DNA from: Armatimonadota bacterium
GTDB taxonomy: Bacteria > Armatimonadota > SYMT01
Length of the DNA: 64,000 nucleotides
Assembly: GCA_046292385.1 (NCBI GenBank)
Contig: JBKBRF010000017.1
Coordinates: forward strand, 37,727-101,726
Direction of reading: 5' to 3'
Position numbers and translations under genes: made by a program. The notes under the pieces were generated by a model. It saw nothing but the letters and a program-made list of their open reading frames with translations. It was not told the DNA's origin and did not search any database. Every line of letters starts with the position of its first letter. Within the stretch, counting starts at the first letter, position 1. Below, one piece after another: positions 2,508 through 15,829 of this stretch.

Positions 2508-4142
2508 ATGACCCAGTACCTGAAGAACGTTTTTTCCGCGCGTCAGACGCCGCAGTCGGAGCCGATCCCCGGCTCCGGGCAGGTGCCGAACAGCGCGGGC
2601 GGGTTCGCCTGGCAGGTCGACGATTGGGCCCGCCTCGATCGCTTCCTGATCCTCGGCAGCGAGGGTGGGTCGTACTACGCCTCCGAGCGGAAGCTGACGC
2701 TGGAGAACGCGGACGCCGTGGTCCGCTGCCTGGAGGCGGACGGCGAGCGGCTGGTCCGCCGGGTGGTCGAGATCAGCGAGTCCGGCCGGGCGCCGAAGAA
2801 CGACCCGGCGATCTTCGCCCTGGCGCTGGCGTGCTCCTTCGGCGACGAGCGGGCGCGCGCGGCGGCGTTCGCGGCGGTGCCGCGGGTCTGCCGGATCGGG
2901 ACGCACCTGTTCCACTTCGCGGAGTTCGTAAACGGGATGCGCGGCTGGGGACGCGGGCTGCGGCGCGCCGTGGCGGCCTGGTACCAGGAGAAGCCGGTGG
3001 GGGCGCTTGCGCTGCAGGCGGTGAAGTACCAGCAGCGGGACCGGTGGAGCCACCGGGACCTGCTCCGGCTGGCGCACCCGGTGCCGGCGGACGAGGACCG
3101 CACCGCCCTCTACCGCTGGGTGACCCGCGGGTGGGAGCCGGAGCGGGCGGACCGGTTCGGCCGCGAGGGCGAGCTGGCGCTGGTCGGCGGCTTCGAGGCG
3201 GTGAAGGCGGCCGCCACGGCGGCGGAAGTGGCGGAGTGCATCCGCACCTACCGGCTGCCGCGGGAGGCGGTCCCGACGCAGTGGCTGACCGACCGCGAGG
3301 TGTGGCGGGCGCTGCTGGAGGAGATGCCGATGACCGCGCTGATCCGGAACCTGGCGACGCTGACCCGCGTGGGGCTGGTGACGCCCGGCTCCGTGGGGAC
3401 CCGGAAGGTGGTGGAGCAGCTCGGCGACCGGGAGCGGCTCCGGAAGGCGCGCGTGCACCCGATCCAGGTGCTCTCCGCGCTGAAGACCTACGCCTCCGGC
3501 AAGGGCGTGCGCTCCGACCAGAGCTGGGCGCCGGTGCCGCAGGTGGTCGACGCGCTCGACGCGGCGTTCTACGCGGCGTTCCGGAACGTGGAGCCGACCG
3601 GCAAGCGGTGGCTGCTGGCGCTCGACGTCTCCGGCTCGATGGAGTGCGGAGTGATCGCCGGGTGCCCGGGGCTGACGCCGCGGGTCGCATCCGCCGCCAT
3701 GGCGCTGGTCACGGCGGCGGTGGAGAAGCAGTACACGGCGGTAGCGTTCGCCTCCGAGGGGACCTTCGGGTGCCGGAGCGGGAGCGGGCTGCGGCCCCTG
3801 GCGCTCTCCTCGCGACAGCGCCTGGACGACGTGGTGAAGCTGACGCAGGCGCTGCCGTTCGGCGGCACCGACTGCGCGCTGCCGATGCTCTACGCGCTGG
3901 AGCGGAGGCTCGAGGTCGACTGCTTCGTGGTCTACACCGACTCGGAGACGTGGGCCGGAAGCGTCCACCCGGCGCAGGCGCTGCGGCAGTACCGGGAGTG
4001 GATGGGGATCCCGGCCCGGCTGATCGTGGTCGGCATGGTCTCCAACGGGTTTAGCATCGCGGACCCGAACGACCCCGGCATGCTTGACGTGGTCGGCTTC
4101 GACACCGCCACGCCGCAGCTGATGACGGACTTCGCCCGCTGA
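2508..4142 (+). CDS. rsr: Ro60 ribonucleoprotein (TROVE + vWA domains), Ro sixty-related protein
   Basis: QVPNSAGGF, RLDRFLILGSEGGSYYA, KYQQRDRWSHRDLLRLAHP, MPMTALIRNL, MIDAS motif DVSGSM, GGTDC, YTDSET, DVVGFD; GAGGAGG RBS. Confidence 0.97.
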   Translation: MTQYLKNVFSARQTPQSEPIPGSGQVPNSAGGFAWQVDDWARLDRFLILGSEGGSYYASERKLTLENADAVVRCLEADGERLVRRVVEISESGRAPKNDPAIFALALACSFGDERARAAAFAAVPRVCRIGTHLFHFAEFVNGMRGWGRGLRRAVAAWYQEKPVGALALQAVKYQQRDRWSHRDLLRLAHPVPADEDRTALYRWVTRGWEPERADRFGREGELALVGGFEAVKAAATAAEVAECIRTYRLPREAVPTQWLTDREVWRALLEEMPMTALIRNLATLTRVGLVTPGSVGTRKVVEQLGDRERLRKARVHPIQVLSALKTYASGKGVRSDQSWAPVPQVVDALDAAFYAAFRNVEPTGKRWLLALDVSGSMECGVIAGCPGLTPRVASAAMALVTAAVEKQYTAVAFASEGTFGCRSGSGLRPLALSSRQRLDDVVKLTQALPFGGTDCALPMLYALERRLEVDCFVVYTDSETWAGSVHPAQALRQYREWMGIPARLIVVGMVSNGFSIADPNDPGMLDVVGFDTATPQLMTDFAR

Positions 4143-7213: not shown

Positions 7214-7285
7214 GGATGCCTCTGCACTCCGTCCTTCAACGAGCGTTAGCGTTCTCCGTCCTCTTCTCGCAGGGAGGCGGTGGCG

Positions 7286-8266
7286 ATGGCGCAGATTGTG
7301 GCGGAGGGGCTGGCGAAGACGTTCTACGTCTCGGAGCGGGAGCCGGGCTTCTGGGGGGCGGCGCGGGGGTTGGTGCGGCGGCGGCAGCGGAAGGTCTGCG
7401 CGCTGGACGGCATCTCGTTCCGGATCGAGCCGGGCGAGCTGGTGGGGTACATCGGGCCGAACGGCGCGGGGAAGTCGACCACCATCAAGGTGCTCGCCGG
7501 GATCCTGGTGCCCGACTCCGGCCGGTGCGAGGTGATGGGCCGGGTGCCCTGGCGCCAGCGGATCGAGCACGTCTCCCGGATCGGCGTCGTGTTCGGGCAG
7601 CGGACGCAGCTCTGGTGGGACCTGCCGGTGGTTGAGTCGCTCGAGCTGCTCCGGGACATCTACCGGGTGCCGCCCGCGCTCTACCGCCGCACGCTGAACG
7701 AGCTGGTGGAGCTGCTCGACCTCGCGCCGCTCCTCGATACGCCGGTGCGCCAGCTCAGCCTGGGCCAGCGGATGCGGTGCGACCTCGCCGCGGCGCTGGT
7801 CCACGCGCCCGAGCTTCTTTTCCTGGACGAGCCGACGATCGGCCTCGACGCCGTCTCCAAGCTGGCGGTGCGTGACTTCGTCCGGCGCCTCAACCGGGAG
7901 CGGGGCGTCACGGTGCTGCTCACCACGCACGACATGGACGATATCGAGGCGCTCTGCACCCGCGTGATGGTGATCGGGGGCGGCGCGCTGCTGACCGACG
8001 GCACGCTGGAAGAGCTCCGCGCGCGGGTGACCCGGGAGCGGTGGTTGATCGTCGACCTGGAAGATGGCTCCGGGGAGCTGCACGACCCCGCGGCGCAGGA
8101 GATGCGGCGGGAGGGCCAGCGGGTGAGCCTGCGCTTCGACCCTTCGGAGGTCGCTCCCGCCGAGCTGATCTGCCGCATCGCGGCCCGGTACCGGGTGCGG
8201 GACCTCTTCGTCCAGAACCCGCCGATCGAAGAGATCATCGCACGGCTCTACGGAGCGCCGGCGTGA
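7286..8266 (+). CDS. ABC-2 type transporter ATP-binding protein
   Basis: Walker A GPNGAGKST, signature LSLGQRMR, Walker B LFLDEPT; GGGAGG RBS. Confidence 0.93.
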   Translation: MAQIVAEGLAKTFYVSEREPGFWGAARGLVRRRQRKVCALDGISFRIEPGELVGYIGPNGAGKSTTIKVLAGILVPDSGRCEVMGRVPWRQRIEHVSRIGVVFGQRTQLWWDLPVVESLELLRDIYRVPPALYRRTLNELVELLDLAPLLDTPVRQLSLGQRMRCDLAAALVHAPELLFLDEPTIGLDAVSKLAVRDFVRRLNRERGVTVLLTTHDMDDIEALCTRVMVIGGGALLTDGTLEELRARVTRERWLIVDLEDGSGELHDPAAQEMRREGQRVSLRFDPSEVAPAELICRIAARYRVRDLFVQNPPIEEIIARLYGAPA

Positions 8267-9054
8267 AGGGGTACGGGTCGGTCTTTCAGGCGCGCTTCCG
8301 CCTCCTGCTCCAGTACCGCGCCGCCGCCACGGCCGGCTTCGCCACCCAGCTCTTCTGGGGGCTGATCCGCGTCATGATCTTCGACGCCTTCTACCGCCAG
8401 GGCGGGGGCGAGCAGCCGCTCAGCTTCCCGGAGGTGGTGACCTACGTCTGGCTGGGCCAGGCGACTCTGGCGCTGACGCTGGGCGGGGCGGAGGCGGAGA
8501 TCCGGGCGATGGTCCGCTGCGGGACGGTCGCCTACGAGCTGGTGCGCCCACTCGATCTCTACGGGTTCTGGTACTGCCGCACGTTGGCCGGGCGCGTGGC
8601 GCCGATGCTGCTGCGCGGCGTGCCGCTCTACCTGGCGGCACTGCTGTTCTTCGGGCTCGGCCCGCCTGCCGGTCCGGAGGCGGCGCTCGGGTTCGCCGCC
8701 TCTCTCGCCGCCGCGGTGCTGCTGGCCGGGGCGGTCTTCATGCTGATGAACGTCTCGCTCTTCTGGACCGTCTCCGGCGAGGGGGTGGCCCGCTTCGGCC
8801 CGGCGCTCATCTACGTCTGCTCCGGGCTGCTGGTGCCGCTGCCGCTCTTCCCGGAGTGGGCGCGCGCCGCGCTCGGCTTCCTGCCGTTCCGCGGCCTGGC
8901 GGACGTGCCGTACCGGATCTACCTGGGTCACCTGCCGGCGGAGGCGGTTCCCGGCCTGCTGCTGCACCAGCTCGCCTGGACGGCGGCCCTGGTACTCTTC
9001 GGACGGTATCTACTCGCCCGCGCGGCCCGGCGCCTGGTGGTGCAGGGAGGCTGA
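8263..9054 (+). CDS. ABC-2 family (DUF990-type) permease
   Basis: GTGA overlap with the ATPase; LQYRAA, GTVAYELVRPLD, SGLLVPLPLFP motifs. Confidence 0.87.
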   Translation: MKGYGSVFQARFRLLLQYRAAATAGFATQLFWGLIRVMIFDAFYRQGGGEQPLSFPEVVTYVWLGQATLALTLGGAEAEIRAMVRCGTVAYELVRPLDLYGFWYCRTLAGRVAPMLLRGVPLYLAALLFFGLGPPAGPEAALGFAASLAAAVLLAGAVFMLMNVSLFWTVSGEGVARFGPALIYVCSGLLVPLPLFPEWARAALGFLPFRGLADVPYRIYLGHLPAEAVPGLLLHQLAWTAALVLFGRYLLARAARRLVVQGG

Positions 9055-9156
9055 GCGGTGCTGAAGCTCGGCATCCGTGGGGCCGCGAGGCATTGAGATA
9101 CCTCGCTGGACGGCCTGCGGCCACGCGTCCTCCGGACGCCCGAATCGAGCCCTCTC

Positions 9157-9207
9157 AGTCCGCGAAGGCGGACTTCGCGCCGTCGTTGCCGCGGTTTCAA
9201 CCGCCCG
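9157..9207 (+). repeat. REP-like double-hairpin element (copy 1 of 3)
   Basis: AGTCCGC-GAAG-GCGGACTTCG...GTTGCCGCGGTTTCAACCGCCCG; related copies at 52505-52555 and 62815-62864 on the minus strand. Confidence 0.65.
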
Positions 9208-9228
9208 GTCTTCCATCAAACAACCGTC

Positions 9229-10032
9229 ATGCTCAACTCCCTTCACCTCTACCTCCGCTACCTCGCTCTCTCCGTCCGGGGGCAGATGCAGTACCGCGCC
9301 TCCTTCCTGATGTTGACGGCGGGACACTTCCTGCTCACCGGAACGGAGTTCCTGGGCGTCTGGGCGTTGATGGAGCGCTTCGGCGGGCTCCGGGGCTGGC
9401 GGCTGCCGGAGGTGGCGGTGCTGTACGGCGCGATCAACGTCTCGTTCGCGCTGGCGGAGGGGGTGGGGCGGGGATTCGACATCTTTTCTCAGCAGGTAAA
9501 GTCGGGCGACTTCGACCGGCTCCTGCTGCGGCCGCGGAGCACCGCGTTCCAGGTGGCGGCTTCGGAGGCGCAGCTCTTCCGGGTGGGGCGGCTGGCACAG
9601 GGGGCGCTGATCCTGGCGTGGGGGCTCGCGTCGGCGCCGATCGACTGGAGCCCCGCCGCGGCGCTGCTGGTGCCGGCGATGGTCCTCGGCGGCGCCTGCC
9701 TCTTCTACGGGCTCTTCGTGCTCCAGGCGACGCTGGCGTTCTGGACCGTCGATTCGCTGGAGGTCTTCAACACGGTCACCTATGGCGGCATCGAGACGGC
9801 GCAGTACCCGCTGGAGATCTACCGGCCCTGGTTCCGCCGCTTCTTCACCGTGGTGGTGCCGCTCGCCTGTGCCAACTACCTGCCGGTCCACGCGCTGCTC
9901 GGCCGCCCGGATCCGTTCGGAGCTCCGCCGCTCCTCCAGTGGGCCGCGCCCGCGGGCGGGCTCCTGTTCCTGCTCGTATGCCTCCGGGTCTGGAAAACCG
10001 GAGAGCGCCGCTATTGCTCCACCGGAAGCTGA
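9229..10032 (+). CDS. ABC-2 family (DUF990-type) permease
   Basis: MQYRASF, GDFDRLLLRP, YPLEIY, ends RRYCSTGS. Confidence 0.88.
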   Translation: MLNSLHLYLRYLALSVRGQMQYRASFLMLTAGHFLLTGTEFLGVWALMERFGGLRGWRLPEVAVLYGAINVSFALAEGVGRGFDIFSQQVKSGDFDRLLLRPRSTAFQVAASEAQLFRVGRLAQGALILAWGLASAPIDWSPAAALLVPAMVLGGACLFYGLFVLQATLAFWTVDSLEVFNTVTYGGIETAQYPLEIYRPWFRRFFTVVVPLACANYLPVHALLGRPDPFGAPPLLQWAAPAGGLLFLLVCLRVWKTGERRYCSTGS

Positions 10033-10209: not shown

Positions 10210-12327
10210 ATGGTTGAGACGAACCCGCAAACGCTGGCGCTGGTAAGAATGGCCGTGGCCCGTGTCGCCTCCGATCCGGAGGACGAGCAGCGCTATCTGG
10301 AGCTGAACTGGGCGCTGGACCGGGCGGTGGAGCGCGATTTCCGCTACCGGGAGCTGCTGGCGATCTTCGAGGAAGGCGCCGCCACCGCCGCGGAGGATGT
10401 CTCCTGGGCCTGGTGGCTCGCCGCCGGCCTGGGGGGGAACCTGACCGGGGACTCGGAGCGGGCCACCCACCTGCTGGAGCAGGCGCGGCGGGAGCTGGAG
10501 GCGCAGGGCCGCGACCACACCGCCATCGGCTCCTTCACCTGCGGAGAGCTGGCCCGGGCCTACTACCACTGCGGCGGCGCCCCGGCGGAGGAGGCGGCCA
10601 CCCGCGGCCTGCAGCTCGCCCGCTCCGCCAACTCGCCCCTGGCGGAGGGCTACGCCCATCACTACCTGGGGCTAATCCTGGTCCGGCGGCGGGAGTACGA
10701 CTACGCCCGGCGCCACATCCTGGCCGCGCGCGAGCTGTTCGAGCGGATGAAGCAGCGCCACGGCCGCGCGCGCGTGCTCGATTCTCTGGCCAGCCTGGAG
10801 ATGGACCTGGGGCACTACGAAGTCGCCCGCCAGCTCCTGGAGGAGAGCCTGGGGGTGAAGAGCGAGTTCCGCGACCTCCGCGGCCAGGCGCTCACCTGCT
10901 CCAACCTGGGGCGGCTCTACACCGGCCTGGCGGACTACTCCCAGGCGCTCCACTACCTGGACCGCGCCCGGGAGCTGAGCACCCGCGTGGGAGACGAGCG
11001 GACCGCCACTCTGCTGCGGATCCGCCTGGGCGAGCTGCACCTGCGGCACAACCACGCGGAGCTGGCGCGAGTGGAGCTGGAAGCCGCCTTCCGCATGGCG
11101 CGAGACCGCCACGACGAGATGCTGGTGGCGACCGCCTGCTTCGCCCTGGCGGAGGCGGAGCGCCGCCTGGGGCACTATCCCGACGCGCTGCACTCGATCC
11201 GGCTGGCGGAGCGGTTCTTCGGGAAGAGCGACGACGTGGTGATGCGGGACCGCGTGGCGCTGCGCCGCGCCCTGCTGGAGGGGGTCGACTTCGAATCGTC
11301 ACGGGTCGAGGGTCCGCTCAACCGGCTGCGGGCCTGCGACGCCTCCGGCGCGCTGGCCGACGCGCTCTTCGAAGCGGCCAGCTTCTTTCACGAGCGAGGG
11401 CGCGTGCAGCAGGTGGCGGCGCTCTACGCCGAAGCGCTCGACGCCGCCGAGCCGGCGCAGGCGATCCAGCTTGCGGAGCAGATGCGCAGCCGGGCCGAAA
11501 GCGTGGAGGGGCGCGCGTGGGTCGACGCGATGCTGAACGTCAAGCACCACAAAGACGAGCTGGAGCAGGCGTACGGGGAGCTGCGCCGCGCCGAATCGCT
11601 GCGGGACGCGCTGACGCAGATGATCGTTCACGACCTCAAGAATCCGCTCACCGCGATCACTCCCTGGCTCCAGACGATCCAGATGGGCGGTCTCTCGGAA
11701 GACGAGACCGAGTCGGTGCTGCAGACGGTGATCGATGAGTGCGACTACCTGCTCCGCACCATCGAGGACCTGAACGACGTCGGGAAGATGCAGCACGAGC
11801 GCACGCTCGACCTCTCCCTGGAGCGGCTCGACCTGACCGAGCTGATGAACGAAGTGGCCCGCCGGCTGCAGACCCGCGCCCGCGATGCCGGCATGACGAT
11901 CCGGTGCGACTGCCCCCGGGCCTCGCTGCTGCCGGTCCGAGGGGATCGCTCCAAGCTCCGCCGCGTGCTGGAGAATCTGGTCGCCAACGCGATCAAGTAC
12001 GGCCGGCCCGCCGAGGGCTCCGGCCTGCCGGCGGAGGTGGAGATCCGGGCGCGCGTGGAGCCGCCGCCGCCGGACGGGGGCTCTCCCTCCGTACGGGTCG
12101 AGGTGTGCGACTTCGGTCCCGGGATCCCGCTGGCGGAGGCGGAGCGAGTCTTCGAGCCGTACTACCAGGCCGAAGCCGGCCGCAAGCGCAAGGCCGGGGT
12201 CGGCCTGGGCCTCGCCTTCTCCCGCATGGTGGTCCAGGCGCACGGCGGCGCCCTCTGGACCGAGCCGAATCCTCACGGCGGCAGCGTCTTCGCCTTCCGC
12301 CTCCCCGCCGAGGACCTCTCGAGCTGA
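10210..12327 (+). CDS. Soluble TPR-repeat sensor histidine kinase
   Basis: Multiple TPR-like repeats; H box IVHDLKNPLT; N box LENLVANAIKY; DFGPGI, FEPY, GVGLGLAFS; no TM segment seen. Confidence 0.9.
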   Translation: MVETNPQTLALVRMAVARVASDPEDEQRYLELNWALDRAVERDFRYRELLAIFEEGAATAAEDVSWAWWLAAGLGGNLTGDSERATHLLEQARRELEAQGRDHTAIGSFTCGELARAYYHCGGAPAEEAATRGLQLARSANSPLAEGYAHHYLGLILVRRREYDYARRHILAARELFERMKQRHGRARVLDSLASLEMDLGHYEVARQLLEESLGVKSEFRDLRGQALTCSNLGRLYTGLADYSQALHYLDRARELSTRVGDERTATLLRIRLGELHLRHNHAELARVELEAAFRMARDRHDEMLVATACFALAEAERRLGHYPDALHSIRLAERFFGKSDDVVMRDRVALRRALLEGVDFESSRVEGPLNRLRACDASGALADALFEAASFFHERGRVQQVAALYAEALDAAEPAQAIQLAEQMRSRAESVEGRAWVDAMLNVKHHKDELEQAYGELRRAESLRDALTQMIVHDLKNPLTAITPWLQTIQMGGLSEDETESVLQTVIDECDYLLRTIEDLNDVGKMQHERTLDLSLERLDLTELMNEVARRLQTRARDAGMTIRCDCPRASLLPVRGDRSKLRRVLENLVANAIKYGRPAEGSGLPAEVEIRARVEPPPPDGGSPSVRVEVCDFGPGIPLAEAERVFEPYYQAEAGRKRKAGVGLGLAFSRMVVQAHGGALWTEPNPHGGSVFAFRLPAEDLSS

Positions 12328-12447
12328 TTCGCGCCCCGCTGCGCGCCTCGCGAGCTCCGCACCCGTCCGCCGCCCCGGCCCGGCTTCCCCGGCCCGGACC
12401 GCCAACCGAGCAGCCGCCTGTAAAAAAAGCGCTCCTCATTCAATCGA

Positions 12448-12464
12448 TTGGCACGGCTCTTGCT
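12448..12464 (+). promoter_or_regulatory. Sigma-54 (-24/-12) promoter
   Basis: TTGGCACGGCTCTTGCT matches the TGGCACG-N4-TTGC(W) consensus exactly and faces the S8 gene. Confidence 0.8.
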
Positions 12465-12788
12465 TACTCATTCATCCGGTTGACAGAATGGCCCATTCGG
12501 TGGACGAGCAGGCAGGCCTGCGGATCGCGCCGAAAACGCCAGAATGAAGTAGGAGCGCACGATTGGCCGGTCGGACAGCGAGAACTGTCCGGTTGACCAA
12601 ACGGCCGGCCCCACGCAGAGGGTAACCTGAACGGGTAGCCCACCCTCCGTGAGCTGCGAAGCTTGAAGCGATTTGGGAGCCCCGATTCCGGAGCTCCCGG
12701 CGAGCGAGTGCCCGTAGTACGGCGCGCGCCCCGCACTCTGTGAACGAGCCGCCGGCGGAGACCCTGCCGGCCAAGAAATGGTGAGAAG

Positions 12789-14807
12789 ATGCATCGATCC
12801 CTGAGCATCCTGGGGGTTGGGCTGGGGCTGACGGCACTGGCGGCGGGAACCTCCGGTGTCCGAGCGGGAGCTTCCGCTTCGGTCACTCTCCCGCCGGCGC
12901 TGAAGGCGAAGCTGGCGTCCAACCTTTACCGCGCCGAGGCGCGGGCGGGACGGCGAACCTACATTGTTCAGTTCCGCGACGCGAAGCGCGGCCTGGAGCT
13001 GGTACGACGGAGCGGGGCTACCGTGGAGCACGCGTTCAGCGTGCTGCCGATGGCGAGCGTGACCGCGGCTCCCGACGAGCTGAACCGGCTCCTGGCTTCC
13101 TCCGAGGTGACGAACGTCAGCTCGGACGCCACCGTGAAGAAGTCGATGGAGTTCGCGATCCCCGCCGTGCGGGCCGACATGCCGCACAAGGTCGGCTTGA
13201 AGGGCAGCGGCGTCACGGTGGCAGTGATCGATAGCGGCATCGCCAATCACTGGGACATCCGCGAGGATCGCTCCGGGCAGCGCCAGAGCCGGGTGCTCGC
13301 CGGAGTGGACTTTGTCAAAGGTGGGTCCAGCACGGCGATGGGCAACGACGAGTGCGGTCACGGCACGATGGTTGCCGGGATCGCGTGCGGCGACGCCACC
13401 TCCAGCACCATGAACACCGATCGTGCCTGGAACACCCGGCACTTCTTCGGCGTGGCGCCGGCTACCAGCATCCTCAACCTGCGCGTGCTGGACAAGCACG
13501 GGCAGGGCACGGTGACCAACGCCATCAAGGCGCTGGAGTGGTGTATCCAGAACAAGACGAAGTACAACATCCGCGTCGTCAACATGTCGCTCGGCCATCC
13601 GCCGTTCCAGAGCTATCTGGAAGACCCGCTCTGCCAGATGACGGAGCAGGCGTGGAAGGCGGGCCTGGTGGTGGTGTGCGCGGCGGGGAACCGCGGCCGG
13701 GCGGTGGCGAACGACCAGAACGGCGGTGCCCGGTACGGCACGATCAACAGCCCCGGCAATAGCCCGTACGTGATCACGGTGGGCGCCACGCGGGACAGCG
13801 GGACGGTCACCACGGATGACGACTGGGTCGCATCCTACAGCAGCCGCGGGCCGACGCGCATCGACCACATCGTGAAGCCGGACCTGGTGGCGCCCGGCAA
13901 CCGGATCATCAGCCTGCGGCACCCCGGCAGCGAGTTGGAGCGCGTGGCAGGCGGCACCAACCTGATCGAGAACTGGTACTACTGGCAGCGGAAGAACGAC
14001 AAGGACGTGAACGGCACGTCCAAGGACTACTTCCACCTGTCCGGGTCCAGCATGGCGGCGGCGGTGGTTTCCGGCGCGGCCGCGCTGATGGTCGGCCTCG
14101 ATCCGTCGCTGACGCCGGACACGGTGAAGGCGCGCCTGATGCTTACGGCCCGCAGCGAGTGGCGCGCGGACGGCCAGTCGCCGGACATCTTCAGCCGCGG
14201 CGCGGGGCTGCTCGACGTAGACCGTGCCCTCCGCTGCCGGGTGGTGGCGACGCGGCCGGCCCTCTCTCCTTACGTCTCGCGGCACGAGAGCACGCTGACG
14301 TTCTACTACGGGCGAGGCCTGGGTGGAGAGGAGACGTTCTGGAGCGGCCTGGGTGTCCAGGCGCACCAGGCGCTCTGGAGCGACGACACGCCGAAGTCGT
14401 CCACCGGCACCTACCCCGGCTCGGGCGGGACCAGCACCTATCCGGATATGTCGTACTACGATCCCAAGAAGTACACGTACAATCCGGACGACTACAAGTC
14501 GCAGGCGCTCTGGAGCGATCAGGCGCTCTGGAGCGACGACGCCCCGCGTGCCCAGGCGGACACGGCGCAGGCGCTCTGGAGTGACCAGGCGCTCTGGTCC
14601 GACGGTCCTGCCGCGCAGGCGGAAGCGCAGGCGTTGTGGAGTGATCAGGCGCTCTGGTCGGACAGCCCGGCCGACGCCATGCAAGAGCTCCAGAACTGGG
14701 CGCAGCAGGCGCTCTGGTCGGACGATAAACCTCGCAGCGATAGCGGGGAGCTCACCCAAGCACTCTGGTCGGACGTGTTCCGAGTGTCCGTTCTGGGGGA
14801 CGAATGA
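12789..14807 (+). CDS. Secreted subtilisin-family (S8) serine protease with C-terminal QALWSD repeats
   Basis: Signal peptide, propeptide, triad VAVIDSG / GHGTMVAG / SGSSMA, oxyanion AAGN, KPDLVAPG; nine QALWSD motifs at 14367-14774. Confidence 0.93.
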   Translation: MHRSLSILGVGLGLTALAAGTSGVRAGASASVTLPPALKAKLASNLYRAEARAGRRTYIVQFRDAKRGLELVRRSGATVEHAFSVLPMASVTAAPDELNRLLASSEVTNVSSDATVKKSMEFAIPAVRADMPHKVGLKGSGVTVAVIDSGIANHWDIREDRSGQRQSRVLAGVDFVKGGSSTAMGNDECGHGTMVAGIACGDATSSTMNTDRAWNTRHFFGVAPATSILNLRVLDKHGQGTVTNAIKALEWCIQNKTKYNIRVVNMSLGHPPFQSYLEDPLCQMTEQAWKAGLVVVCAAGNRGRAVANDQNGGARYGTINSPGNSPYVITVGATRDSGTVTTDDDWVASYSSRGPTRIDHIVKPDLVAPGNRIISLRHPGSELERVAGGTNLIENWYYWQRKNDKDVNGTSKDYFHLSGSSMAAAVVSGAAALMVGLDPSLTPDTVKARLMLTARSEWRADGQSPDIFSRGAGLLDVDRALRCRVVATRPALSPYVSRHESTLTFYYGRGLGGEETFWSGLGVQAHQALWSDDTPKSSTGTYPGSGGTSTYPDMSYYDPKKYTYNPDDYKSQALWSDQALWSDDAPRAQADTAQALWSDQALWSDGPAAQAEAQALWSDQALWSDSPADAMQELQNWAQQALWSDDKPRSDSGELTQALWSDVFRVSVLGDE

Positions 14808-14989
14808 AAATGCGAAAACGAGTTGCATCCCATCGTGGCGTCCGCTCGACACTACTTCCGATGCTGAAGTATCTGGTCGTAGGACTCCTCCTCGCCGGCG
14901 TGGCCCTCGCTCCGGTCACGGCCCACGCGGCTGGCTGCGCCGGGGACTCGCCGAAGCCTCAAAAAACACAGGTTCTCTGGAGCGACTAA
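14804..14989 (+). CDS. Small secreted peptide ending in QVLWSD
   Basis: ATGA overlap with the protease stop (alternative starts 14810, 14861); hydrophobic core and A-H-A cleavage site; C-terminus matches the protease repeat. Confidence 0.7.
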   Translation: MKMRKRVASHRGVRSTLLPMLKYLVVGLLLAGVALAPVTAHAAGCAGDSPKPQKTQVLWSD

Positions 14990-15017
14990 CCGCTTTCAGG
15001 GTTCCGGAACGCGCACC

Positions 15018-15053
15018 GGACAGCCCGGCCTCCACCTGGAGGCCGGGCTGTCC
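15018..15053. terminator. Strong GC hairpin, probable bidirectional terminator
   Basis: GGACAGCCCGGCCTCCA-CC-TGGAGGCCGGGCTGTCC between convergent genes. Confidence 0.65.
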
Positions 15054-15145
15054 TGCGTACGGCTGCGGAGCTCAGTGGGAGAGTGAGAGAGTGGGATCCG
15101 GGGCCGGCCGTGTGGCGCCGGTCTCCCGGATCCCCGGCGCACCGT

Positions 15146-15829
15146 TTAGAGCTGTTTGAGGTGGAAGTCTTTGAACTGCACCTTCATCGGCGGGCCCTGG
15201 TGGAGCTGCAGCGCGAGGATGCCCTCCGCCGCGCGGCCGTCGGTATCCTCGTCCGTCGTCTCGGCCGTCACCACGCCGTTGATCTCGTGGCGGAGCTGGT
15301 TGCCGCGAGCGACGAGGTGGTACTCGTTCCACTCCCCTTTCCGCACCGCCGCCTTGATCTTCTCCGGGTCTCCCACGGTGCCCACCACCTTCGGCTTGCC
15401 GTCTTCTCCGATGACGGTCCGCTGTCCCGGCTCGGCCAGGACGCCGCGTCCGCGCTCCTCGTAGATCAGGCCGTTCCAGCGGTCGCCGGCTTCGAAGTCG
15501 GCCTGGTAGCCTGCCACCACCCAGTTGCCCAGGTGCTTGCTGCGGTACTGGATGCCGGAGTTGCCGCCTTCGATGCGGAACTTCACCCGGAGGTCGAAGT
15601 CCTTCAGCGTGCCGCCCTTCCAGATCAGGAAGGTGTTCTGCGGCGTGGGGCGGTCCGGCGTGGTGGTGCCGGTCAGGGCGCCGTCCTGCACGGACCAGAA
15701 CTTCGGATCACCGTCCCAGCCGGTCAGGTCCTTCCCGTTGAAGAGGCTGCGGGAATCGGGCTGGGCGGCAGCCACGGTCGCGGCCGCGAGGGCGACCAGC
15801 GCGGTAAGGGAAATCAGGCGATGAGCCAT
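15146..15829 (-). CDS. DUF1080 / 3-keto-disaccharide hydrolase family secreted protein
   Basis: SLFNGKDLTGW, GNSGIQYRS, GYQAD, GEWNEY, GILALQLH. Confidence 0.9.
   Translation of the reverse strand: MAHRLISLTALVALAAATVAAAQPDSRSLFNGKDLTGWDGDPKFWSVQDGALTGTTTPDRPTPQNTFLIWKGGTLKDFDLRVKFRIEGGNSGIQYRSKHLGNWVVAGYQADFEAGDRWNGLIYEERGRGVLAEPGQRTVIGEDGKPKVVGTVGDPEKIKAAVRKGEWNEYHLVARGNQLRHEINGVVTAETTDEDTDGRAAEGILALQLHQGPPMKVQFKDFHLKQL

Follow-up and report, generated by a model that had tools for sequence, protein, structure and literature searches.

We analyzed a 64,000-nucleotide stretch of DNA from an uncultured soil bacterium of the Armatimonadota (GenBank assembly GCA_046292385.1, contig JBKBRF010000017.1, positions 37,727 to 101,726), hereafter the window. 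Within it, a gene encoding a subtilase of family S8 ends in a tail bearing nine copies of the hexapeptide QALWSD, and is followed at once by a small open reading frame (ORF), here called the mini-gene, whose product ends in the variant copy QVLWSD. This pair had been singled out in a preliminary reading of the window made without database searches, which we refer to as the sequence-only reading. The features of the locus, in window coordinates, are as follows.

12789..14807, plus strand: S8 subtilase gene, 672 residues, with a signal peptide, a propeptide-like region, a catalytic domain and a repeat tail
13203..14159, plus strand: S8 catalytic domain, residues 139-457 (Pfam envelope)
14367..14774, plus strand: tail region, nine QALWSD units on Ala/Ser/Asp/Gln/Pro/Tyr-rich linkers (from the sequence)
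14775..14804, plus strand: non-repeat terminal segment VFRVSVLGDE (from alignments A1 and A2 and the sequence)
14804..14989, plus strand: mini-gene, 61 codons, unannotated, overlapping the S8 stop as ATGA, with alternative starts at 14810 and 14861
14804..14929, plus strand: predicted Sec signal peptide, residues 1-42 of the mini-protein, with a basic start, the hydrophobic core YLVVGLLLAGVALAPV and an A-H-A site (from sequence and hydropathy)
14930..14986, plus strand: predicted exported 19-residue peptide AGCAGDSPKPQKTQVLWSD, a variable linker followed by ten last residues that are conserved in a diverged strain
14969..14986, plus strand: single C-terminal unit QVLWSD, followed by TAA (from the sequence)
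15018..15053, no strand assigned: hairpin with a perfect 16-bp stem, lying between the mini-gene and the 3-keto-disaccharide hydrolase gene, which converge

The repeat-tailed subtilase and its mini-gene

The subtilase matched PF00082 over residues 139-457 (E 5.8e-48; 164.1 bits against a cut-off of 21.8), and the residues of the Asp-His-Ser triad and the oxyanion Asn (D148, H191, S421 and N301) were invariant across alignment A2 of 52 sequences. The closest solved chain in a search of the PDB was 3afg_A (E 1.9e-36 over residues 123-383), from Tk-SP of Thermococcus kodakarensis (PDB 3afg, 9ues). The likeness to this nearest solved subtilase is that of the catalytic domain; the match ends within that domain, and the tail was aligned by nothing in the PDB search.

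All nine exact QALWSD units fall in the final 146 residues of the protease, starting at residues 527, 572, 578, 594, 600, 614, 620, 640 and 657 (nucleotides 14367, 14502, 14520, 14568, 14586, 14628, 14646, 14706 and 14757). These positions agree with the three tandem pairs and three singles described in the sequence-only reading; the linkers comprise 8-39 low-complexity residues, and two looser Trp units are present besides the exact ones. The nine units are written in seven different DNA versions, with Ser encoded by AGC, AGT, TCC and TCG and hence drawn from both Ser codon families. The identity of the unit is therefore held at the protein level, as had been proposed. The tail matched no model in Pfam or NCBIfam. 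The hexapeptide-repeat proteins of PF00132, which form a left-handed beta-helix, have a six-residue period in common with the tail, but here the invariant residue is Trp, linkers interrupt the units, and PF00132 (Hexapep) gave no match to the repeat region at E <= 0.1. The Atlas model of the whole protease had a mean predicted local distance difference test score of 0.67, and its tail part had no recognizable fold, resembling only unrelated helical proteins at an uninformative template-modelling (TM) score by query of at most 0.35.

The terminal segment following the last unit carries a Gly-Asp that is conserved across the family of tails described below, G670 and D671 being invariant in alignment A1. 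The codons of this segment also supply a Shine-Dalgarno-like GGGGGA ahead of the mini-gene start. A similar arrangement was seen at the S8 stops of loci L002 and L003, where, as at window positions 14795-14803, the terminal Gly-Asp/Glu codons (GGGGAC, GGAGAC) form the Shine-Dalgarno-like sequence of the next gene. This double use may account in part for the conservation of the terminal Gly-Asp/Glu.

Each detail previously given for the small ORF was borne out, including the ATGA overlap that couples it to the S8 stop, the signal-peptide-like start with its A-H-A site, and the end at QVLWSD-stop. Neither a gap nor a hairpin was found at the junction of the two genes. The hairpin 3' of the mini-ORF is highly stable (a 91-nucleotide fold of -58.2 kcal/mol, z -6.8, with none of 200 shuffles equally stable) and is the probable terminator of the S8/mini-gene unit. 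A terminator scan missed this hairpin, which has no T-run. A promoter scan of positions 12200-15300 returned no sites, and Rfam gave no match in the region.

The combination of features found in the mini-ORF is rare in the genome. The string LWSD occurs 30 times in a six-frame translation of the 7.04-Mb sequence, with nine occurrences in the tail, one in the mini-ORF and 20 elsewhere. Among 124,314 stop-to-stop ORFs of 15-130 residues, a hydrophobic 12-mer (Kyte-Doolittle hydropathy >= 2.5) is present in 436, and a terminal Trp unit, defined as [LIVMAF]W[GSATDN][DENSTGQKA], in 113. Both features come together in one ORF only, where about 0.4 would be expected, and that ORF is the one abutting the tail.

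Standard annotation had been expected to miss the small gene, and the ORF was indeed absent from two protein collections. A word-based search of 5.8 billion protein clusters gave no match, and a phmmer search against 1.84 billion representatives gave three, all of them long low-complexity proteins that are not homologs. It follows that gene callers missed the ORF. A search of 41 related genomes recovered only the mini-ORF itself, the next best match having an E of 0.002.

A strain about 4% diverged was represented by a 481-nucleotide contig from a metatranscriptome library, which covers positions 14534-15014 with 19 differences and no indel. It spans the end of the tail and the entire mini-ORF, and the frame is kept with no stop. 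A contig from an RNA library may be derived from DNA, and a contig over two genes does not show one transcript; we have therefore counted it as evidence of conservation and as only a weak hint of expression. The mini-ORF contains 12 of the differences, five synonymous and seven non-synonymous, with the protein changes R14H, A34V, C45S, A46H, D48E and K51N. Its last ten codons contain a single change, which is synonymous, leaving the protein identical there. The part of the tail covered has six synonymous changes and one non-synonymous. The C45S change also bears on the idea that the mini-protein is a bacterial lipoprotein, which was considered and rejected: the Cys45 of a would-be lipobox is not conserved, and the -3 residue is Ala, not Leu, Val or Ile. 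The above considerations indicate that the mini-gene appears to be real, conserved and unannotated.

Recurrence of the tail and of mini-genes in two phyla

When 13 strong S8 matches in related genomes were examined, every one had units of the form x-x-[LIVM]-W-[GSA]-x after the catalytic domain. A scan of genome contigs with the single protease sequence returned nothing. An alignment-based scan with one genome per species gave 80 loci, mostly from Acidobacteriota (Bryobacteraceae, Terriglobia) and Armatimonadota, and an independent scan of metagenome contigs gave 80 further loci. Four or more Trp units after the domain were present in 173 S8 genes in total. The window protease shares the traits of this family, having at least four units C-terminal to the S8 domain and a terminal segment ending in G-[DE] (..VLGDE). 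Many relatives carry uninterrupted arrays of up to about 33 units, and the copy number varies. No description of the tail or of the mini-genes was found in the literature, in a search that left supplementary files outside its scope.

The sequence-only reading had proposed looking beside homologous S8 genes for small ORFs ending in the cognate motif, and such ORFs were found in both phyla. A first set of loci, the 80 genome loci among them, contained 17,225 short ORFs. A terminal Trp unit was present in 31 of these, nine of which combined it with a hydrophobic 12-mer. The nine share the strand of the S8 gene, none being on the opposite strand, and eight lie directly beside it. The ORF at L114 was discounted as a mini-gene, as it overlaps in another frame a gene for a MASE9 protein, a type of membrane sensor discussed below. 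The metagenome set yielded 5,210 short ORFs on the S8 strand, 27 of them hydrophobic, 15 with the ending and seven with both features; these seven occur in six loci, and each adjoins the S8 gene. On the opposite strand were 5,979 short ORFs, 52 of them hydrophobic and four with the ending, and none had both. We also scored short ORFs having Trp at position -3 for an ending identical to the cognate tail consensus at three or more of six positions. Such endings were found in 22 of 82 ORFs adjacent to the S8 gene on its strand; in the controls they were found in 5 of 328 ORFs farther away on that strand and in 9 of 410 on the opposite one. The distance rule used for this comparison wrongly scored L071, whose ORF directly adjoins the S8 gene.

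The mini-gene loci total about 18, comprising the window, its two closest orthologous loci and 15 further loci. The total includes L109, which was found by eye and whose product ends in the unit plus one Cys. On a FastTree phylogeny of 172 catalytic domains, the mini-genes are distributed over about five clades, with eight changes.

Armatimonadota clade of the window: mini-gene downstream
Two acidobacterial groups: mini-gene downstream
Clade of nine members: mini-gene upstream
A pair: mini-genes without an export signal

The endings of the mini-proteins follow the tails of their own lineages: Q-x-L-W-S/G-D is found with QALWSD tails, N-A-V-W-G-D with SVVWGD tails, and S-A-V/I/M-W-G-S/A with S-V/I-V/I-W-G-x tails. 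With one exception, the mini-proteins end exactly two residues past the Trp. All seven acidobacterial mini-proteins encoded downstream of or between S8 genes have x-x-Ala directly before the unit, two to three residues past the hydrophobic core, so that signal peptidase I would be predicted to free exactly the hexapeptide. The mini-proteins matched no Pfam or NCBIfam family. The acidobacterial mini-protein of L081 has eight called relatives, all unnamed or "hypothetical".

Two variant arrangements were seen. At L067 (4268-4521) and L142 (4080-4429), two different mini-genes follow the S8 gene in tandem, a pair conserved between these two unrelated contigs, and one of the pair encodes a Cys two residues ahead of the unit. 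At L011 (G013:C67), an S8 gene with about 33 SALWGD units stops directly at the end of a unit and lacks the usual terminal segment, and the stop is followed by 33 in-frame codons that end ..SVLWND-stop and have no obvious start codon. This extension may reflect readthrough, an error in sequencing, or a mini-gene that starts in an unusual way.

The two S8 loci closest to that of the window, from the related genomes G005 and G004 (56-57% identity), are each closely followed by an ORF that encodes Q-I/M-L-W-S/G-D. Both ORFs are preceded by a Shine-Dalgarno sequence and start 5-17 nucleotides past the S8 stop. The G005 ORF ends ..PRPSQILWSD-stop, and the G004 ORF has a hydrophobic start and carries ..SQMLWGD. 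The export signal of the G005 mini-ORF has been lost or was never present. In the G005 protease tail (L002/L046, contig C4), a Pro/Tyr/Asp-rich linker of more than 100 residues sets the first unit apart from the later ones, and the units themselves are degenerate. No ortholog above 50% identity came out of the metagenome scan.

This recurrence bears on whether the small ORF of the window might be non-functional, either as a chance ORF, as a remnant of a tail duplication, or as a Trp-sensing leader peptide. The high ratio of non-synonymous to synonymous differences (7:5), the lack of a called homolog and the absence of an export signal from the G005 copy would all be in keeping with such an ORF. 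We nonetheless regard this as highly improbable. Less than one ORF of the kind was expected genome-wide, yet the one found abuts the tail; its frame and last ten residues are kept in the diverged strain; and mini-genes recur in about five protease clades from two phyla. A frameshifted remnant of the tail, the case that the sequence-only reading had named as its own refutation, does not fit, since the codons of the mini-ORF unit and those of the last tail unit disagree at most synonymous positions, and since a remnant would end in the conserved terminal segment rather than at a unit. The leader peptide was rejected because it would be expected upstream of the protease gene and would need no export signal, whereas the ORF is downstream and has one.

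The diversity of tails and mini-proteins is relevant as well to an alternative, raised in the sequence-only reading as a beta-strand assembly, in which the units would stack as beta-strands or as a Trp-zipper. The mini-protein, either signal-anchored in the inner membrane or free, would then add one unit, thereby tethering the protease or capping the assembly. The long uninterrupted arrays of many relatives are suggestive of stacking, and the conserved non-repeat segment that ends all tails could be a cap. In the shortest mini-proteins the unit lies two to three residues past the hydrophobic helix, and so would be held at the membrane surface. On the other hand, long low-complexity linkers separate the units here, and more so in the G005 ortholog, and a linear motif is therefore better suited to them than one solenoid. 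The tail part of the Atlas model matches no fold, A-x-A-type cleavage sites lie ahead of the unit or of the pro-region, and some mini-proteins are without any hydrophobic segment. A role for the units in docking or capping is in our estimation rather doubtful.

Sensor genes beside the subtilases and the fate of the tail

Genes for membrane sensors of the MASE9 type are frequent neighbors of the tail-bearing S8 genes. A MASE9-like profile was built from five membrane proteins of about 240 residues that are encoded after S8 genes. With this profile, a MASE9-like ORF was found to flank the S8 gene at 44 of the 80 genome loci and again at 44 of the 80 metagenome loci (88 of 160 in total). These relatives stand alone or are fused to longer proteins, and their genes lie downstream in the orientation of the S8 gene or upstream in divergent orientation. 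The Pfam cut-off for MASE9 was passed by two of the four profile seeds scanned, the fifth seed (L096) lying outside the scan, and the longer form at L067 is an HD-GYP/GAF protein by Pfam. We know of no ligand for the MASE9 sensor domain. In the relevant passages of the preprint describing MASE9, its authors suggest that this membrane sensor domain binds a ligand within the membrane (bioRxiv 10.1101/2021.11.05.467447).

The window genome holds four tail-bearing S8 genes, and each of the three outside the window (loci L208-L210) has a MASE9-type sensor gene after it on the same strand.

C30:56250-58172, minus strand: paralogous tail-bearing S8 gene
C38:33138-34823, minus strand: paralogous tail-bearing S8 gene
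C44:27281-29203, plus strand: paralogous tail-bearing S8 gene

The fusion partner is HisKA/HATPase/REC in two of these sensors and HD-GYP/GAF in the third. Their membrane domains were recognized on C30 and C38 by the MASE9-like profile only, and on C44 by Pfam at 23.0 bits, just below the cut-off. None of the three paralogs has a mini-gene by a genome-wide ORF scan, which for C38 was complemented by inspection by eye, and the window S8 copy has no adjoining MASE9-like ORF. The candidate sensor gene near the latter is of another kind.

10210..12327, plus strand: soluble histidine kinase with an N-terminal tetratricopeptide repeat (TPR) region (Pfam TPR_12/TPR_2, HisKA, HATPase_c)

The TPR kinase has no transmembrane segment (maximum 19-residue hydropathy 1.08). 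Its gene ends 460 bp ahead of the S8 gene, which separates it from the mini-gene, and the order kinase-S8-mini is kept in G005, whose kinase is 64% identical, and in G004. The window subtilase resembles other subtilases with Trp-hexapeptide tails in its S8 domain, its Trp units and its short conserved terminal segment. A further shared trait is that a genome holds many paralogs, frequently with a sensor gene alongside. The window copy differs from them in that its units are spaced by linkers and not arranged as one array, the mini-gene occupies the position of the partner gene, and the neighboring candidate sensor is a soluble TPR kinase, not a MASE9 protein.

The sequence-only reading had placed cleavage of the tail after the Gln of each unit, for which we found no support. 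The propeptide junction, placed by homology, has Leu or Met at P1. If the units are cut, this favors cutting after the Trp, and the mini-proteins would then look like minimal substrates ending at P2'. A different scissile bond is suggested by the residue after the oxyanion Asn (R302 here), which we take to be the equivalent of Glu156 of subtilisin BPN', at the rim of the S1 pocket. This residue is Arg or Lys in 16 of 52 proteases whose units end in Asp or Glu, compared to 4 of 120 others (Fisher 1.4e-6), an association that would put the last residue of the unit at P1. When relatedness was controlled for, 13 independent pairs were obtained, with four going the same way, one the opposite and eight showing no difference (sign test p ~0.4), and we therefore treat the association as a hint only. 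The two hints are in conflict, as one would have the bond cut after Asp and the other after Trp.

These same observations could suggest that the hexapeptide is directed at the cleft of the protease itself, as a mimic of a substrate or product. The tail would in that case be a tethered pseudo-substrate, acting in auto-inhibition or as a sacrificial timer, and the mini-peptide a competitor or inhibitor in trans that protects the periplasm or tunes activity. There is precedent in that the C-terminus of the subtilisin propeptide stays bound in the cleft, and the conserved span of six residues fits the reach of the subtilase subsites. The raw Arg/Lys association is in keeping with such a role, as are the near-uniform ending of the mini-proteins two residues past the Trp and the fact that [LIV]-W-[GS] would be sensible as P2-P1-P1', given Leu or Met at the P1 of the inferred autoprocessing site. 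However, the association was not significant after the control for relatedness, 36 of the 52 tails ending in Asp or Glu have no Arg or Lys at this position, the hints disagree on the bond, and the strong pairing with sensor genes is left unexplained. Regulation through the active site is on balance an unlikely function for the unit.

The main proposal of the sequence-only reading was that the tail is a multi-core precursor cut by its own protease, with the mini-gene supplying a variant core. Such a tail would be akin to the precursors of ribosomally synthesized and post-translationally modified peptides (RiPPs), and would be cut into identical hexapeptides that serve, for example, as an antimicrobial or metal-binding end product. 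Units kept identical by selection on the protein, with copy numbers that vary among relatives, are what such a precursor would have, and precursors that are fused to an enzyme or hold many copies are found elsewhere, as in the borosins and the Kex2-processed repeat precursors of fungi. The annotated flanks of the S8 locus include an ABC-2 transporter, the kinase, the 3-keto-disaccharide hydrolase and cytochromes, and by Pfam annotation no genes for RiPP-modifying enzymes were present in the flanks from 2.5 to 21.5 kb of the window; a RiPP in the strict sense is therefore unsupported. There is no polyprenyl synthase gene on the contig, cutting after Gln finds no support, and the recurrent neighbors of the subtilases are sensors, not exporters or immunity genes. 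Taken together, we consider a multi-core natural-product precursor improbable.

A possible ligand role for the hexapeptide

The pairing of a protease tail with a mini-gene in two phyla looks like an undescribed device for peptide signalling or for docking. As the most economical reading, we tentatively favor one based on sequence comparison, in which the hexapeptide would serve as a ligand for a common partner and a free, exported copy of it would come from the mini-gene. The tail of a secreted and catalytically intact subtilase would display nine copies of QALWSD as beads on flexible linkers. The mini-gene would be co-transcribed and translationally coupled, and would encode a Sec-exported pro-peptide whose last six residues are the variant copy QVLWSD. 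Removal of the signal peptide, possibly with trimming by the subtilase, would leave a small peptide, periplasmic or diffusible, that has the unit as its free C-terminal end. On the tail the unit would be presented tethered, or would be released should the protease cut there. The unit would most likely be read by a sensor protein, which elsewhere may be the MASE9 membrane sensor encoded beside most tail-bearing subtilases. In the window genome the reader could be the soluble TPR kinase encoded alongside, or one of the three MASE9 sensors whose genes follow the S8 paralogs. We infer export, processing, release and binding of the peptide, and the identity of its receptor, from the features and gene neighborhoods described above.

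Several observations weigh against this reading. Mini-genes were found at only about 18 of the loci holding the 173 tail-bearing S8 genes, and in most lineages the tail therefore works without one. The acidobacterial mini-proteins of L101 and L138, as well as the G005 mini-ORF, are without a hydrophobic start, and the G004 ORF runs at least 12 residues beyond the unit before its contig ends. The mini-ORF has evolved faster than the tail (seven non-synonymous to five synonymous differences, compared to one to six), and the contig on which this count is made may, as noted, derive from DNA. The kinase gene is single-copy in all seven family genomes, but is followed by the S8 gene and the mini-gene in only three of the seven, other genes following in the remaining four; with the 460-bp gap, this linkage may be inherited synteny. 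Because the linkage is weak, we treat the TPR kinase as a candidate receptor only.

The proposed arrangement can be compared to two known types of peptide signal. The propeptides of RRNPPA systems are described, in the relevant passages of one account, as Sec-exported and as matured by signal peptidase and extracellular proteases to a pheromone of 5-10 residues, which is usually C-terminal in the propeptide and sometimes present in one to four copies (PMC11343458). The mini-protein, as read from its sequence, may be such a propeptide, having a basic start, a hydrophobic core, an A-H-A site and a conserved C-terminal decapeptide. To the extent that the Phr/RRNPPA systems of Bacillota are described there, the likeness extends to a small, predicted Sec-exported precursor that is clustered with a TPR-type protein and has its peptide at the C-terminus. 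The TPR protein here is, in contrast, a kinase of TPR-HisKA-HATPase architecture and not a receptor of the Rap, Rgg or PlcR type, and its linkage is weak (three of seven genomes). Moreover, the hosts, Armatimonadota and Acidobacteriota, are diderms, the annotated window flanks around the locus contain no Opp genes, and the module encodes a protease that itself bears nine copies of the unit.

The ComX precursors, 53-58 residues long, are reported to give pheromones of 6-10 residues in which Trp is the third or fourth residue counted from the C-terminus (PMC5331326); these are sensed by a membrane kinase (PMC13731918). The precursor here has 61 residues, and its Trp is third from the C-terminus (..L-W-S-D-stop). 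The reader of ComX, so far as these sources describe it, is a polytopic membrane histidine kinase, to which the MASE9-kinase fusions beside the paralogs of the window genome are comparable. ComX, however, requires the prenyltransferase ComQ encoded adjacently and has no Sec signal peptide, and no repeat-bearing subtilase is part of ComQXPA. Prenylation of the ComQ type was rejected for this locus, as PF00348 matches were confined to contigs C1, C5 and C13, with none on the window contig, C17. With neither an RRNPPA-type receptor nor a ComQ gene, the locus would at most work like the RRNPPA and ComX systems and is not a member of either. By analogy with them, it may be regarded as a variant form of ribosomal peptide-signal precursors with protease maturation.

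To our knowledge, ribosomal peptide signals are well known in Bacillota, and almost none are known in Armatimonadota or Acidobacteriota, soil phyla that are abundant and little understood. The locus provides a candidate ligand of six residues that can be synthesized, a protease, and defined candidate receptors. It also affords the simple prediction that in the shortest precursors signal peptidase alone frees the hexapeptide. Were the favored reading true, MASE9 would gain a ligand, and a tail that is carried by hundreds of proteins and is unnamed in databases would be explained. A conserved class of genes of 29-61 codons is being missed by annotation. A broader proposal, which we offer as speculation and would not expect to hold in full, is that of an unknown peptide-signalling system of diderm soil bacteria. 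The protease would carry and release many copies of the hexapeptide so that the output reports active extracellular proteolysis, the mini-genes would give a protease-independent copy freed by signal peptidase, and the MASE9 sensors or the TPR kinase would read the peptide and thereby control cyclic di-GMP turnover or phosphorelays.

Other genes near the tail-bearing subtilases might be partners in peptide traffic. At L070, L071 and L081, a gene for an SBP_bac_5 protein (peptide-binding type) and a gene for an ABC ATPase lie upstream of the mini-gene, and at L081 (5197-6219) a gene for a peptidase M50, of the site-2 protease family, follows the MASE9 gene. The products of these genes are possible partners in the import and processing of the peptide. 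In the window, an ABC-2-type transporter, made up of an ATPase and two ABC2_membrane_6 permeases, is encoded at 7280-10029 (plus strand), immediately ahead of the TPR kinase gene, an arrangement without synteny in G005.

Farther upstream, two 122-nucleotide matches to the tRNA model were found on the plus strand of the window at 1630-1751 and 1964-2086 (50.2 and 49.6 bits). Both lie upstream of a Ro60/TROVE plus vWA gene at 2508..4139. As they are much longer than a tRNA and located just upstream of the Ro60/TROVE gene, they are probably tRNA-like Y RNAs, presumably of the YrlA kind.

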